64,000 nucleotides of DNA, from contig NC_091476.1 in assembly GCF_036971445.1 (NCBI RefSeq), positions 94,860,001 through 94,924,000 on the forward strand, in the 5' to 3' direction. Source of the DNA: Narcine bancroftii (taxonomy: Eukaryota). The notes beneath the pieces were generated by a model, which saw only the letters and a list, made by a program, of their open reading frames with translations, searched no databases and was not told the origin of the DNA. Below, piece by piece: positions 36,321-45,299 of the stretch; positions within the stretch are counted from its first letter, which is position 1; each line of letters opens with the position of its first letter. The translations under genes and the position numbers were made by a program.

Positions 36321-38544
36321 GGGTTAACAATAAATTCACTGAAATCAATTTACCGATGAAAATTCACCATCTATCAAATTCTTTGGCTTGGCTTCGCGGA
36401 CGAAGATTTATGGAGGGGTAATGTCCACGTCAGCTGCAGGCTCGTTTGTGGCTGACAAGTCCGATGCGGGACAGGCAGACATGGTTGTAGCAGTTGCAAG
36501 GGAAAATTGGTTGGTTGGGGTTGGGTGTGGTGTTTCATCTCCTTTGTCTTTTGTCAGTGAGGTGGGCTCTGGGGTCTTCTTCAAAGGAGGTTGCTGCCTG
36601 CCGAACTGTGAGGCGCCAAGATGCACAGTTTGAGGCGATATCAGCCCACTGGCAGTGGTCAATGTGGCAGGCACCAAGAGATTTCTTTAGGCAGTCCTTG
36701 TACCTCTTCTTTGGTGCACCTCTGTCTCGGTGGCCAGTAGAGATCTCGCCATAGAACACAATCTTGGGAAGGCGATGGTCCTCCATTCTGGAAACGTGAC
36801 CTACCCAGCGCAGTTGGATCTTCAGCAGCTTGGATTCGATGCTGTCGGCCTCTGCCATCTCGAGTACTTCGATGTTGGTGATGAAGTTGCTCCAATGAAT
36901 GTTGAGGATGCAGTGGAGACAATGCTGGTGGAAGCGTTCTAGGAGCTGTAGGTGATGCCGGTAGAGGACCCATGATTTGGTGCCGAACAGGAGTGTGGGT
37001 ATGACAACGGTTCTGTATACATTAATCTTCGTGAGGTTTTTCAGTTGGTTGTTTTTCCAGACTCATTTGTGTAGTCTTCCAAAGGCACTATTTGCCTTGG
37101 CGAGTCTGTTGTCTATCTCGTTGTCGATCCTTGCATCCGATGAAATGGTGCAGCAGAGATAGGTAAGCTGGTTGACCGTTTTGAGTTTTGTGTGCCCGAT
37201 GGAGATGTGGGGGGGCTGGTAGTCATGGTGGGGAGCTGGCTGATGAAGGACCTCAGTTTTCTTCAGGCTGACTTCAAGGCCAAACATTTTGGCAGTTTCC
37301 GCAAAACAGGACGTCAAGCACTGAAGAGCTGGCTCTGAATGGGCAACTAAAGCGGCATCGTCAGCAAAGAGTAGTTCAAGGATGAGTTGCTCTTGTGTCT
37401 TAGTGTGAGCTCGCAGGCACCTCAGATTGAAGAGACTGCCATCCGTGCGGTACCGGATGTAAACAGCGTCTTCATTGTTGGGGTCTTTCATGGCTTGGTT
37501 CAGCATCATGCTGAAGAAGATTGAAAAGAGGGTTGGTGCGAGAACACAGCCTTGCTTCACGCCATTGTTAATGGAGAAGGGTTCAGAGAGCTCATTGCTG
37601 TATCTGACCCGACCTTTTTGGTTTCGTGCAGTTGGATAACCATGTTGAGGAACTTTGGGGGGCATCCGAGGCGCTCTAATATTTGCCAAAGCCCTTTCCT
37701 ACTCACGGTGTCGAAGGCTTTGGTGAGGTCAACAAAGGTGATGTAGAGTCCTTTGTTTTGTTCTCTGCACTTTTCTTCGAGCTGTCTGAGGGAAAGACCA
37801 TGTCAGTAGTTCCTCTGTTTGCACGAAAGCCACACTGTGATTCTGGGAGAACATTTTTTGCGACACTAGGTATTATTCTATTTAGGAGAATCCTAGCAAA
37901 GATTTTGCCTGCAATGGAGAGCAGCATGATTCCCCTGTAGTTTGAGCAGTCTGATTTCTCACCTTTTTTTATGTACAGGGTGATGATGATGGCATCACGA
38001 AGGTCCTGAGGCAGCTTTTCTTGGTCCCAGCAGAGCTTGAAAAACTCATGCAATTTGGCATGCAGAGTTTTGCCGCCAGCCTTCCAGACCTCTGGGGGGA
38101 TTCCATCCATACCTGCTGCTTTGCCACTTTTCAGTTGTTCAATTGCCTTATATGTCTCTTCCCGGGTGAGGACCTCATCCAGCTCTAACCTTAAGGGCTA
38201 TTGAGGGAGCTGGATTCTTGGACTGAGTGGTTGACACTGAAAAGAGATTAGAAGTGTTCTGACCATCAGTTGAGGATGGAGATCTTGTCGCTGAGGAGGA
38301 CTTTGCCATCTGAGCTGCGCAGCAGGCTTTGGACTTGGGATGAGGGGCCATACACAGCCTTTAGAGCCTCGCAAAAACCCCTGAAATCGCCAATGTCCGC
38401 GCTGAGCTGGGTTCATTTGGCGAGGCTAGTCCACCACTCATTTTTGATCTCCTGGAGTTTGCGCTGAAGATGGCTGCATGCGCGACGGAAGGCTCGTTTC
38501 TTCTTTGGCCAGGGTGGCTTTGCAAGGTGAGCCTGGTGGGCAGC

Positions 38545-38784
38545 TGTAGAGCTCGTCGAAAGAACCAAAGACTTGTTGATCCAAACCAAGGCTTTTATTA
38601 GCAAAAGACCGGAGCTCTTCACAGGTGGCCAACCAGTCCGGAATGATCCGACCTGGCTAGGGACACAACCCTTTAAGGCCCAAACAATAGGTGTGGCTTA
38701 GCTCTCAGCCAATCGCTGTAAGCACAGTCTAGATACAGTAACTATATACACTATGTACATTGGTGATAGATCTGTACTATCACA
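38545..38784 (-). repeat. 3' LTR of the young Gypsy
   Basis: Identical to 43268-43507 except 2 substitutions; AATAAA on minus strand at 38594-38599. Confidence 0.97.
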
Positions 38785-38797
38785 TTCACCCCTTCTT
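38785..38797 (-). promoter_or_regulatory. Polypurine tract
   Basis: Minus strand AAGAAGGGGTGAA immediately before the 3' LTR. Confidence 0.85.
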
Positions 38798-38856: not shown

Positions 38857-41800
38857 TCAAGGACTGTAGCGGTCAGGGGGTCTGACCATCCGGCGTGACC
38901 GCCGTGGTGCCGGGATTGGGGTCGCTGGAGTGGTGTCGCCAGCGGGCTCATCGGGTGCGACTGCTCCGTCGCTCAATTCCCCAGTCGTTTTGTCGGCAGG
39001 GTGGCCCGAGTCATTGGGGTGCTGTTGGTCCTTCTGTTGCGGCACGGGGCCTGGAGCATAAGGAGTTGGGGGGTTTGCTGGGTCTACCGCGTCCTGAGCT
39101 AGGTCCTGCACCGAAACAGTGTCCTCCCGCCCGTCTGGGAACTCCACGTATGCGTAATGTGGGTTCGCGTGGAGTAGAGTCACTCGGTCGACCAAGGGGT
39201 CGTTCTTTGAGTGCCGGACGTGGCGTCGCAAAAGGACGGGGCCAGGGACGGTGAGCCATGCCGGTACAGTGGTTCCCGATTCGGATTTCCTCGGGAAAAG
39301 GAACATCCTTTCGTGGGGGGTGGCATTTGTTGCAGTACATAGGAGGGAGCGGATGGAGTGTAAGGCACTAGTGAGAACCTCCTGCCAGTGAGAGGTGGGG
39401 AGACCTTTAGACCGGAGAGCCAGTGTAACCGCTCTCCATATGGTGGCATTCTCCCTCTCGACCTGGCCATTACCGCGTGGGTTATAGCTCGTGGTCCTGC
39501 TTGAAGCAATACCACACTCCAGAAGGTACTGTTGCAGCTCTGCACTCATGAATGAGGACCCCCTATCACTGTGGATGGAATTGGGGTACCCGAAGATGGT
39601 GAAAATACTGTGAAGGGCCTGTATCACTGAGGTGGCAGTGGTGTCTGGGCAGGCCACAGCGAATGGGAAGCGGGAGTATTCGTCGATGGCCGTAAGGATG
39701 TAGGTATTACGGTTGGTCGACGGTAGGGGTCCCTTAAAGTCTACGCTAAGACGCTCGAAGGGGCGGGTGGCTTTGATAACGTGGGAGTTATCCGGACGGA
39801 AGAAGTGGGGCTTGCATTCGGCGCACACCGAACAGGCTCGGGTCATGGAGCAGATCTCCTCAACTGTGTAGGGTAAGTTGCGCGCCTTGACAAAGTGAGC
39901 AAACCTAGTGACCCCTGGATGACAGAGCGCCTCATGGAGTTTCCGTAGTCTGTCCATCTGTATGCTGGCGCACGTTCCCCTGGAGAGCACGTCAGGCGGG
40001 TCGTTGAGCTTACCAGGCCGGTACAGGATGTCATAGTTAAAGGTGGAGAGTTCGATTCTCCATCTGGCGATTTTGTCGTTTTTTATCTTACCACGCTGGG
40101 TGTTGCTGAACATGAAGGAGACCGCGCGTTGATCAGTCAACAGTGTAAAGCGCCTCCCAGCGAGGTAATGTCTCCAACGACGTACCGCTTCAACTATGGC
40201 CTGGGCCTCCTTCTCGATCGAGGAGTGTCTACTCTCCGGACCCTGGAGGGTTCTGGAGAAGAAGGCTACAGGCCGACCGGCCTGGTTCAAGGTGGCTGCC
40301 AGGGCGAAGTCGGATGCATCGCTCTCGACTTGAAACGGGACAGACTCATCGATCGCGTGCAGCGTCGCAGCAGCGATGTCAGATTTGATTCGATCGAAAG
40401 CCGCTGTGGCTTCGGTCGAGAGGGGAAAAGAGGTGGTCTTGATAAGAGGACGTGCCTTGTCGGCGTAGTTTGGAACCCATTGGGCGTAATACGAGAAAAG
40501 GCCCAGGCAGCGTTTGAGAGCTTTCTGGGTATGTGGGGGGGGTAAGTCCATTAAGGGACGCATGCGGTCAGGATCTGGCATGACTATCCCGTTTTCCACC
40601 ACACAACCTAGAATAGCGAGTCGTGTGGTCCGGAAAACACACTTGTCCAAATTGTAAGTCAGGTTTAGCTGACGGGCAGTTTGAAGAAATTTGTCTAGGT
40701 TGGCGTCATGGTCCTGCATGTCGTGGCCGCAGATGGTGATATTGTCCAGATACGGGAAGGTAGCGGTTAGCCCGTTCTGGTCCACCATCCTGTCCATTTC
40801 CCGCTGGAAGACCGCGACACCATTTGTGACCCCGAATGGTACCCTGAGAAATTGATATAGCCGCCCATTCGCTTCAAAGGCCGTGAATGGTCGGTCCTCG
40901 CAGCGGATCGGGAGCTGGTGGTAGGCCGAACGTAGGTCAATAGTGGAGAAAATGCGGTACTGGGCGATCTGGTTCACCACATCCGTGATGCATGGCAGGG
41001 GGTACGCATCCAGGAGTGTGAAGCGGTTAATGGTCTGGCTATAGTCGACCACCATCCGTAGTTTTTCCCCATTCTTGACAACCACCACCTGGGCTCTCCA
41101 GGGGCTTGAACTGGGTTCGATGATGCCCTCATCCAGCAATCTACGCACCTCACTCCTAATGAATTGCCTGTTTTCGTAACTATATTGCCGACTTTTGGTG
41201 GCCACAGGCTTCCAGCCAGGGGTGAGGTTTGCGAAGAGTGCTGGCGGGGCAATCCGGAGTGTGGAAAGGCCGCAGGATTGGCCCCGGGGCACGGGGGCGG
41301 GTTGCTCGGGTGCTTCGGGAGTGGGGCGATGGCAGACCGAGAGGGGGGCGTGGGGTCCCCCAAAGTGTAGGGACACCGTTTGGAACTGACACTGGAAGTC
41401 TAATCCCAGCAACACTGGGGCGCACAATTGGGGAAGGACGAATAATTTAAAGTGGGTGACCGTCACGCCCTGTACTTCCAGCGTGGCGATGCAATACCCC
41501 TTTATCTCAGTCGAGTGCGACCTCGTCGCTAATGAGATCCTCTGGGTAGTGGGGATAATGTCAAGTCCCCAACGGAGGGTCAGATCTGGCTGGATAAAAC
41601 TGTCAGTTGACCCAGAGTCAAATAAGCAATTGGTGTAGTGTCCATGCACTTTAATCAGTTCCATTGCTCTGGTGAGGGGATGAGAGCATTGCTGGTTTAA
41701 TGTTATTGAAGCAGTTGACAGGGGAGTTTTGCGCGATGACGTCACGCAACGGGATGACGTCACGCAACGGGATGACGTAGTCAACGCTCGAGGAGCAGGT

Positions 41801-43233
41801 TGGAGAACCTCCCGGAAGTGCTGTTGTGGCGGGTGAATGGTAAGTAGTGGGGTTTGTAGTTGCTCGCGATTGGCGGTCGGGCCCTGGCGGTCGTCAGCGA
41901 TGGACGCTAGGGTGAGCACCTGGTTGGCCGCGGGGGTGGCTGCGGCGGCGGTAGCGTCGGCCCCGGGGGTGTCTGTGGTGGCGGCAGCAGCGGCGGTAGC
42001 GTCGGCCCCGGGGGTGTCCGTGGCGGCGGCAGCAGCGGCTGTAATGTCGGCCCCGGAGGTGTCCGTGGCGGCGGCAGCAGCGGCGGTAGCGTCGGCCCCG
42101 GGGGTGTCCGTGGCGGCGGCGGCAGCAGCGGCGGTAGCGTCGGCCCCGGGGGCGTCCGTGGCGGCGGCAGCAGTGGCGATAGCGTCGGCCCCGGGGGCGT
42201 CCGTGGCGGCGGCAGCAGCGGCGGTAGCGTCGGCCCCGGGGGTGGCTGTGGCGGCGGCAGCAGCGGTGGTAGCGCCGGTAGTGTCAAGTGTTCCGCACGG
42301 GGGCGAGAGGCAGGCCATCACCATGGTTGCGATGGTGGGTTGCCCCTTCCGGGTTCGGCGTCTCCGTGACGTCAGGCGTTGCCGTGCAGGGGAGCCCTCG
42401 CTCTCATTGGACGAGAGCTCTGGGGAAGAAGAGTTTGAATGGGATAGTGGCGGTTGAGCTTCACACGAGGCACTGTGTTTGCTGGCGGCCATTTTAGACC
42501 TACAGACTGCAGCAAAGTGGCCCTTTTTAAGGCACTTCTGGCACCTGGCTTTTCTTGCTGGGCACTGGGATCTGCTGTGCTTGTCCCTCCCGCAGAAATA
42601 ACATTTCGGGTTCGCACGGGGCAGGGTAGCAGCAGCCGACAGGCCGTCAGGGGTAGGGTAGAAGGGCACTCTACTCACATCAGAATGTGGGGTCCAGTCC
42701 CTAGAGAGCTCGGTGGACTTTAAGGCTGCATCCTCCATTGTGATTGCAATCCGGGCCACGTCCTCTAGTTTTTCTACCCCTTGCTCGAGCAAACGCAGCC
42801 TCACTTCGTTCGATCGGAGCCCGGCCACATAGGCATCCCGGACGAGGTCGCTAGTGATCTCGGCAGCAGTTTTGTCCACACAGTTACAGTCCTTGCCCAA
42901 TGCCTTTAATACTTGTAAATATGCCCTGCTGGACTCGCCGGGCTGTTGCTTCCTCGACGCAAGCACGAGCCGGGCATGAACTCTGTTCACCGGTTGATCA
43001 TACAGTCCTTTCAGTACCTTTATGGCTGCGGTGTAAGTGGTCTCATCCTGGATGTTCTCGTAGACTCTCAAGGACACCATAGACAGCAATGCTGTTAGAC
43101 GCTGGTTATCCTCCTCTACCTGAATGAATCTCAGGAAGTTTTCAAAGTTCAGCAGCCAGAAGTTAAAGGCTTTGAAGGCTGTAGCTGACTGTGGGTCGAT
43201 ATCAAGTTTTTCTGGCCGAGTTAAACGCTCCAT
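38857..43233 (-). CDS. Gag-Pol polyprotein (1458 aa from ATG 43233): gag, 2x CCHC, Ala/Thr repeat, PR, RT, RNase H, integrase
   Basis: [14 protein letters not shown] and [14 protein letters not shown]; PR LFDSGS; [23 protein letters not shown]; RH DASD..EKE..TD; INT HHCC, VDFKGP, SDRG, GQVER. Confidence 0.95.
41930..42270 (-). repeat. In-frame 45-bp GC-rich minisatellite (~7 copies; [15 protein letters not shown])
   Basis: Unit ggtagcgtcggccccgggggtgtccgtggcggcggcagcagcggc on the plus strand; one 48-bp variant. Confidence 0.95.
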
Positions 43234-43267
43234 CCCTTTCAAAAAAAATTCTTTTTGCTAATAAAAT

Positions 43268-43507
43268 TGTAGAGCTCGTCGAAAGAACCAAAGACTTGTT
43301 GATCCAAACCAAGGCTTTTATTAGCAAAATACCGGAGCTCTTCACAGGTGGCCGACCAGTCCGGAATGATCCGACCTGGCTAGGGACACAACCCTTTAAG
43401 GCCCAAACAATAGGTGTGGCTTAGCTCTCAGCCAATCGCTGTAAGCACAGTCTAGATACAGTAACTATATACACTATGTACATTGGTGATAGATCTGTAC
43501 TATCACA
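43268..43507 (-). repeat. 5' LTR of the young Gypsy with putative Pol II promoter
   Basis: CCAAT 43432-43436; TATA-like TTAAAG 43399-43394; Inr-like TCATTC 43369-43364 (A+1 is 32 nt downstream); AATAAA 43322-43317. Confidence 0.9.
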
Positions 43508-44517
43508 GCAGCTCACTTCTTTGCCAGCAGCTCCTGGATTTCCTGGTTGTTTTCGTCGAACCAGTCCTTGTTTTTCCTGGAGGAGAACCCCAGTATTTCT
43601 TCAGTGGATTGCAGTATGGCAGTCTTCAGCTGATCCCAGAGGGTTTCAGGGGACGAGTCCAGGAGGCGGATTGCATCCTCGAGCTTTGCTTTGAGGTTTG
43701 CCTGGAAGTTTCCTCTCACTTTGTCTGACTGCAATTTTCCAACATTGAAACTCTTTCTGGGAGCTTTACTGTTCTTGGACTTTGGCTTGAAGTGAAGGTT
43801 GAGCTTGCAACAAATAAGCCGGTGGTCAGTGTGGCATTCTGCGCTGGGCATGACCCTGGTGTGGAGCACATCTCATTTGTCTCTTTCTCGCACCAGGATG
43901 TAGTCCAGGAGGTGCCAGTGTTTGGATCGGGGATGCATCCAGGTGGTCTTAAGGCTGTCCCTCTGCTGAAAAAGGGTGTTTGTAATGACAAGCCGCTGTT
44001 CTGCGCAGAGCTCCAACAGGAGGCGCCCGTTGTCGTCGCACTTGCCGACTCCATGCTTGCCCAGGATTCCTGGCCAGGTTTCTGAGTCTTTGCCGACGCG
44101 AGCGTTGAAGTCGCCAAGGATGACAACCTTGTCGGCTGTAGGGGTGCGTTGAATGAGGTTGCACAGATCAGTGTAGAACTTGTCCTTTTCTGCTGGTTCC
44201 GCCTGGAGGGTTGGAGCATAGACACTAATGAGGGTGATGCGATGCTTGTTTTGAAGGGGGAGTCGCATGGACATGATCCGGTCCGATCATCCGGTCCACA
44301 TCTATCAAATTAACCAACGGAAAAATCACCAACCATCAAATTCACTGACATAATACAAAGAATATAGTTTTAATTTTTGATGTGTTTTTAAGTGTCCTTT
44401 AATAAAGCTTTTAATTAGGTGTTAATTGGTAATTCCTGCAGACATTTGCCTAATGAGCCTCCCCTCAGGTCGTTGCTCCCATGGCTTCCTGTGCTAGTTC
44501 TCCCCCCTCGGCCCCTC

Positions 44518-45299
44518 GGAGGGCAGATTACTATTTGAATGGCAATAGATTAAGAGATGGGGAAGTGCAAAGAGACCTAGGGGTACTTGTACATCAGTCT
44601 CTGAAGGCGAGCATGCAGGTACAGCAGGCGGTTAAAAAGGCAAATGGTATGTTGGCCTTCATATCAAGAGGGTTTGAGTATAGGAAGAAGGATACCTTAC
44701 TGCAGCTGTACAGGGCCTTGGTGAGACCCCACCTGGAGTATTGTGTGCAGTTTTGGTCACCTTATCTAAGGAAGGATGTTCTTGCAATGGAGGGAGTGCA
44801 GAGGCGATTCACCAGGCTGATACCTGGAATGGCAGGAATGCCTTATAAGGAAAGATTGCGCAAATTGGGATTGTACTCGCTGGAGTTTAGAAGATTGAGA
44901 GGGGATCTCATAGAGACCTATAAAATTCTGGCAGGACTGGACAGAATGGATGCAGATGGGATGTTTCCAATGATGGGAAAATCCAGAACCCGGGGCCATG
45001 GTTTGAGGATAATAGGCAAACCATTTAGGACCGAGATGAGGAGGAATTTCTTTACCCAGAGGGTGGTGAATCTGTGGAATTCATTGCCACAGAGGGCAGA
45101 AGAGGCAGGTTCATTAAATCTATTTAAGAGGGAATTAGATATATTTCTTCAGTATAAGGGTATTAAAGGTTACGGAGAGAAGGCGGGGACGGGGTACTGA
45201 ACTTTAAGATCAGCCATGATCTTGTTGAATGGCAGAGCAGGCTTGAAGGGTCGAATGACCTACTCCTGCTCCTATCTTCTATGTTTCTATGTTTCTATT
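44518..45299 (+). mobile_element. Young 5'-truncated CR1 LINE
   Basis: Open ORF2 C-terminus to stop at 45200 (RDLGV, RPHLEYCVQFWSP, RGDLIE, TRGH, WNSLP); GATCAGCCATGATC 3' stem; (TTCTATGT)n tail; possible TSD CCCCTC. Confidence 0.92.

Follow-up and report, generated by a model that had tools for sequence, protein, structure and literature searches.

The window analysed here, a 64,000-nt stretch of the Narcine bancroftii genome (contig NC_091476.1, positions 94,860,001 to 94,924,000), carries a complete LTR retrotransposon on its minus strand, nested in LINE-like sequence. The features of the element given below all lie on that strand. The 5′ LTR (43268..43507) is 240 bp long, begins with TG and ends with CA, and agrees with the 3′ LTR at 238 of 240 positions (43268-43507 vs 38545-38784); the element is young. 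The pentamer GCTGC is found on both flanks (43508..43512 and 38540-38544), in keeping with the LTRs and 5-bp target-site duplication reported in a preliminary description of this DNA, and a polypurine tract ending in AA precedes the 3′ LTR (38785..38797). A single open reading frame of 1458 amino acids (38857..43233) encodes Gag, protease, reverse transcriptase (RT), RNase H as well as integrase; its top protein match, with 100% identity over the region searched, carries the label Narcine bancroftii in its source. The Ala/Thr-rich linker between Gag and protease consists of seven tandem units of 45-48 nt (window 41885-42323), and the number of units varies among genomic copies. The interrupted host is presumably a broken RTE-like LINE (36535-38544 and 43508-44274, minus strand), and what we take to be a CR1-like LINE fragment adjoins the element on the plus strand (44481-45200). 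The family is large, with 1746 first-look candidates in the genome, and a pattern search makes two subfamilies visible within it. Five further loci (L005, L014, L015, L020 and L021), short and internally deleted, have both LTRs, the primer site and target duplications, and are likely to be non-autonomous derivatives.

The element is a member of Ty3/Gypsy (Metaviridae), with LTRs of the TG...CA type, a target duplication, the domain order protease-RT-RNase H-integrase and an RT closest to that of Ty3, whose RT is also the closest solved structure (E = 6e-51). No Pfam chromodomain match was found in the reading frame at E ≤ 0.001. By sequence and homolog comparison, the RT catalytic motif (40741..40752) reads YLDN, not YXDD. 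Among 120 homologs, Y[LMIV]DN occurs in 93 and the two aspartates are kept in 27; as the family is young and numerous, the YLDN motif is compatible with recent activity. Neither YLDN nor YXDN occurs in the papers that a literature search listed. Two CCHC knuckles are present in the window reading frame and in 100 of the 120 homologs, and a double CCHC knuckle in Gag is a trait of the Mag lineage. The Mag-like label first given to the element is supported to this extent; the RT motifs differ by eye from the SURL row in the accessible part of the PMC11673190 supplement, and membership of the Mag lineage is unproven. The Kuafuorterviruses (Troyka), whose RT motif is IADD, VADD or LADD according to the same partly accessible source (PMC11673190), are ruled out by the YLDN found here. 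Nor did we assign the element to the Tf1/sushi group of chromoviruses, given an internal pairing partner and no detected chromodomain.

The 5′ LTR is followed by a one-nucleotide spacer, A (43267), and then by TTTTATTAGCAAAA (43266-43253). These 14 nt, which occupy the position of a primer-binding site (43253..43266), are the exact reverse complement of 43329-43316, an arm within the LTR at positions 179-192 (LTR position p corresponds to window position 43508 - p; arm 43316..43329). The arm ends in AATAAAA, and the AATAAA poly(A) signal lies at its 3′ end (LTR 186-191, 43317..43322). The 14-nt exact self-complement had been described beforehand, and its coordinates hold throughout (43266-43253 against 43329-43316, with AATAAA at 43322-43317). 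Two other observations in that description agree with the sequence: a leader of 34 nt from the LTR to the gag ATG (43233), and a primer site without TGG. The latter triplet, of the tRNA 3′-end type, is missing from the window site and from those of the relatives alike, so that, as far as sequence can tell, the lack of a tRNA-type primer site in the window element is confirmed. The 3′ LTR (38545..38784) contains AATAAA with no pairing partner downstream; what follows it is host DNA only, and the complement is indeed missing there, as had been stated. The identical 14 nt occur in 30 of the 30 best-matching copies, which were picked for likeness and are therefore not independent. Folding of the R-U5-leader RNA bears out the duplex in part: 12 inner pairs of the 14 have a predicted probability of 0.89-1.0, and the RNA as a whole is no more stable than shuffles (z = -0.36). 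An Rfam search gave no match at the gathering score.

For comparison across families, we fetched 89 related loci, 80 from metagenomes and 9 from genome bins. We scored 41 of these and the window for a duplex beginning one nucleotide after a CA, which is the LTR end wherever both LTRs are present; 43 loci without a gag-start match and five with too little upstream DNA were left out. The families have RTs roughly 49-67% identical to that of the window element. Scores of at least 10 were obtained for 38 of the 42 loci and of at least 12 for 35, whereas six of 504 shuffles reached 10, none reached 12 and the maximum was 11; the spacer is 1 nt in all 38 loci scoring at least 10. Grouped into 20 families, the loci pair at the same position in 19, over 12-19 bp. 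The four below 10 comprise two mutated copies of a paired family (L059 and L069) and two loci of one family with no pairing (L120 and L121). Pairs 1-12 are Watson-Crick in 19 of 19 families, which is partly a selection effect and is controlled by the shuffles. Pair types vary in columns 4-13, pairs 1-3 are nearly always A:T, and some arm columns are loosely conserved, such as pair 10, a G:C in 17 of the 19. In one case, the two arms differ in step between a locus (L055) and its 98.4% identical sister (L056), a pattern to be expected where an LTR-derived primer serves to recopy the site. Judged by these alignments, primer-site pairing is a conserved feature with covariation across the clade.

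The relation of the duplex to the poly(A) signal is less uniform. In 14 of the 19 paired families, AATAAA or ATTAAA closes the arm; the other 5 have no such hexamer there, and in L046 and L048 a hexamer is in the unpaired loop. The earlier proposal that the pairing hides AAUAAA therefore fits the 14 families and fails for those with no arm hexamer or with a looped one, leaving masking of the 5′ LTR signal plausible but not universal (14/19 families). The bases directly 3′ of the arm (window 43310-43315, minus strand) read GCC or ACC in 16 of the 19 families. Frequently a small stem begins with them and stacks on the main duplex; it has at least 4 bp in 11 of 19 families versus 17% of shuffles and is weak in the window element. 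These bases and the stem may mark a cut site. In L084 1-140, a more distant relative that lay outside the scored set as it has no gag-start match, 13 nt of the post-LTR sequence match a site lying some 77 nt upstream, at a different spacing. Loci L126-L134 place this animal retrotransposon on contigs of bacterial genome bins, most likely through host contamination, and a search of viral contigs found no relative.

The ends of the RNA can be approached through poly(A)-tailed copies in the genome. Five such copies end at LTR positions ~207-211 (43297..43301), 16-20 nt downstream of AATAAA, which places the poly(A) addition site there. In one of them, L220, a duplication of ~17 nt flanks an extra G followed by positions 141 to ~208 and a poly(A) tail; this is the product of LINE-type retrocopying from a short R-only RNA, the extra G probably being derived from the cap. 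Three others begin at position 1 and one inside pol, so among the poly(A) copies L220 alone bears on the start. Together with the clusters of junction ends reported below, it points to a transcription start at LTR 141 (43367), in an initiator-like TCATTC, with a TATA-like and presumably functional TTAAA 28-32 nt upstream (43395..43399). The preliminary description had predicted a start near 43367, upstream of the paired segment, and this is where L220 begins and where primer-side ends cluster (137-144). The putative start lies 38 nt upstream of the arm, which also upholds the claim that the partner is internal and not formed by the first nucleotides.

A self-primer without a modified base to stop the plus strand would sometimes let U5 continue into a reverse copy of R. 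Primer-copy junctions of this kind, defined as a U5 end running into a reverse copy of R past the 14 nt, were located at 111 places in the first subfamily and at 138 in the second. These 249 are places and not events, some being tandem or replicated copies. Reversed controls gave 0, the mirror junction occurs at 1 place, and the exact normal LTR-leader junction at 612. The 249 U5-R copy junctions against 1 mirror junction, with the covariation across the clade, support the self-priming that had been suggested from the window sequence. Generic inverted-repeat switching is ruled out as the main source of the junctions by the same ratio, and assembly artefact by exact target duplications and the many different breakpoints. 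In one contig among four sequencing runs, a primer-copy junction is present as a loose end.

We read in detail 98 junctions in 95 loci, drawn from the 111. Class A comprises 26 palindromes reaching, or nearly reaching, the U3 start on both sides, with exact target duplications in 14 of 18 clean ones. In class B, a short piece of U5 is followed by a jump, giving a U5-side end; there are 53 such junctions, 40 of them into the element body and 38 independent. Class C, in which a partial copy of R is followed by a jump (a primer-side end), holds 24 junctions, 16 into the body and 15 independent, the LTR being complete in each of the 15. These counts omit junctions whose target is an LTR or that have no target, and a few loci fall in two classes. 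Ends of class B range over 176-222 with no single sharp position; their median is 193.5, and 32 of 38 fall in 179-202 and none in 134-148. In class C, 7 of 15 ends lie within 137-144 (binomial p = 3e-5 relative to a uniform distribution), 7 at 146-164, inside R, and one at 103. For the second subfamily, we read 30 of the 138 places and found class B ends at 157, 184, 192, 192, 192, 192, 193 and 197 and class C ends at 138, 141, 143, 148 and 171. Both ends are visible in 8 copies of classes B and C, and all 8 are flanked by exact 5-bp target duplications, indicating that the rearranged copies formed before integration. Microhomology at the junctions is mostly 0-3 nt.

Some rearranged copies have features of their own. 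L035 and L045 are insertions at different sites with a common primer-copy junction and internal deletion, and this form seems to have transposed again. Primer-copy molecules in L142, L186, L197 and L203 share a recurring second fold-back, located where a small inverted repeat occurs near LTR 190-219. At G000:C11:145898158-146976514, primer-copy junctions recur every ~332 bp, which suggests tandem amplification of a palindromic LTR unit.

From these data we consider it probable that the element primes itself in cis, in a manner like that of Tf1 and with an internal cut. In a transcript starting at 43367, the predicted fold would join the primer site to R nucleotides 39-52, which end in AAUAAAA. 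A cut at the duplex end, predicted from the U5-side ends at LTR 191-193 (43315..43317), within a nucleotide or two of the last pair, would free a primer of ~52 nt (LTR 141-192, 43316..43367) that is delimited by the end clusters and whose first ~37 nt are predicted to form a hairpin. By analogy with Tf1, the cut would be made in cis, probably by the element's own RNase H, a domain present in the window reading frame. Minus strong-stop DNA would then be only ~49 nt long and would have to jump by means of the 15-18 nt that separate the cut from the poly(A) site. The need for this 15-18 nt transfer before the poly(A) site would explain a cut at the poly(A) signal, and since the cut cannot fall downstream of the poly(A) site, the coincidence of arm and signal may follow. 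With no modified base as a stop, the plus strand would often copy the whole primer and mis-transfer. A cut after 191 would leave a 2-nt overhang matching the AA of the polypurine side; 191 and 192 are both possible. The same duplex may hide AAUAAA in the 5′ LTR. We infer start, cut and primer alike from DNA fossils.

That the primer derives from R, whether in cis or from R-only RNA in trans, we hold to be very likely. In trans, the primer would be a short R-only poly(A) RNA that originates in solo LTRs or in the 5′ LTR, or else the genomic 3′ R, trimmed to the duplex end and annealed to an uncut template. R-only poly(A) RNA did exist, as L220 attests, LTR depth is far above internal depth in contigs of four runs, and an R-only primer would account just as well for the covariation and for the primer-side ends clustering at 141. 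An uncut template, however, predicts U5-side ends at 141, and there are none among the 38 in 134-148 and none among the eight of the second subfamily; a primer from the 3′ R would moreover not yield primer-side ends at the start. Class C leaves a peak at the RNA 5′ end, and class B peaks near 193 with nothing at 141, which favours a cut template, so we judge priming in trans unlikely. The cis reading has soft points of its own. A nicked DNA hairpin at the stem-loop border could be what centres the U5-side ends, and primer-side ends at the start could arise where plus strong-stop DNA anneals to another RNA that is uncut, which leaves the primer length unproven. The palindromes of class A do not need self-priming.

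The duplex might alternatively be mainly a regulatory hairpin that hides the 5′ AAUAAA, with another mode of priming and with fossils that are fold-backs of plus strong-stop DNA. Such fold-backs would account for the palindromic class and perhaps for the 249:1 asymmetry, and the hexamer at the arm end in 14 of 19 families, under a duplex predicted to cover it, is in harmony with this idea. It gives no reason, however, why the duplex should keep an exact 1-nt distance to the integrase end throughout the 38 scoring loci, nor why in some families the arm hexamer should be missing (5/19) or looped out (L046, L048). A fold-back would still require 14 nt copied from the primer and would yield no stop at 141, and the 34-nt leader has no other primer site; we regard this explanation as improbable. 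More improbable still is priming by a host tRNA half or other small host RNA, with the LTR match incidental. Half-tRNA priming is known in Ty1/copia lineages (from the accessible part of PMC6317226), and the loosely conserved arm columns, such as the G:C at pair 10 in 17 of 19 families, would suit a host partner. Yet the site lacks TGG and thus matches no mature tRNA 3′ end, every family's site tracks its own LTR letter by letter, R sequence follows U5 in the 249 aberrant places, and Rfam holds no match at the gathering score. Self-priming in cis with an internal cut thus stands as our preferred reading.

A literature search returned no description of the clade's primer site; Repbase, GyDB and most subscription journals lie outside its coverage, and an earlier description there is possible. 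Related papers, among them PMC3601003, PMC6238403, PMC13524379 and PMC6934838, contain none in their accessible parts. Self-priming itself is already known, from experiments on Tf1 and from predictions for a few lineages. What is new here is a probable variant of it in which the cut is internal and falls on or close to the poly(A) signal, with good odds for priming in cis in our estimation, and genomic fossils of the kind that a copied self-primer would leave, at 249 places. We offer the broadest statement tentatively, as one that may well prove too wide: in a widespread animal Gypsy clade, mostly with a YXDN RT, self-priming would have evolved apart from that of Tf1, the RNA would be cut internally at the poly(A) signal to give a capped ~52-nt primer, one duplex would both silence the 5′ poly(A) signal and make the primer, and start, cut and primer would be recorded in hundreds of mis-transferred cDNAs. 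If true, an internal-cut design in a large and recently active animal clade would mean that escape from tRNA priming is common and has taken more than one design, and primer formation would be tied to poly(A) control. Such elements might also be beyond tRNA-fragment silencing. The approach is reusable, as aberrant integrated cDNAs can map the start, cut and primer of such families from an assembly alone.

Like members of the Mag lineage (Mag, SURL), the window element has short LTRs, a 5-bp target duplication and a double CCHC knuckle; Mag elements use tRNA priming. In HIV-1, base pairing in the 5′ poly(A) hairpin hides AAUAAA in the 5′ LTR, the hairpin occurs in R/U5 at both ends and the primer is a tRNA. 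Here, unlike in HIV-1, the primer site itself serves as the partner, and it is confined to the 5′ end. Fungal GalEa elements (Ty1/copia) also lack a tRNA site and have a conserved complementary pair, the Conserved Hairpin Site, at the primer position; in the accessible part of the source, both arms are downstream of the LTR and no LTR partner was found, whereas the partner here is inside R (PMC5445492). Self-priming has been predicted from sequence for whole plant lineages, the chromovirus Tcn1 and the Ty1/copia TAR, and unlike here, the available portion of that study neither places the partner on the poly(A) signal nor gives primer-copy fossils (PMC6317226). The closest parallels are self-primed Ty3/Gypsy elements of the Tf1/sushi group, Tf1 and Tf2 of Schizosaccharomyces pombe and Tj1 of S. 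japonicus; for Tj1, such priming is a proposal (PMC4600332, in part). Going by the accessible parts of the sources, these likewise lack a tRNA site, pair the primer site with their own 5′ RNA and free the primer by a cut at the duplex, as we infer for the window element; Tf1 cDNA often retains a DNA copy of the primer site (PMC11042837). In Tf1, according to the part of the source available, the duplex at the primer site is formed by the first 11 bases, and the RNase H cut falls between base 11 and base 12 (PMC7175516). The window element differs in that its partner is internal (nucleotides 39-52 of the putative transcript), in that the predicted primer is ~52 nt long with an unpaired 5′ part, and in that the cut would coincide with the poly(A) signal, so that ~15-18 nt would remain for strand transfer. 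It is further set apart from the Tf1/sushi group by the absence of a chromodomain match, by its two CCHC knuckles and by a clade RT that is mostly YXDN.
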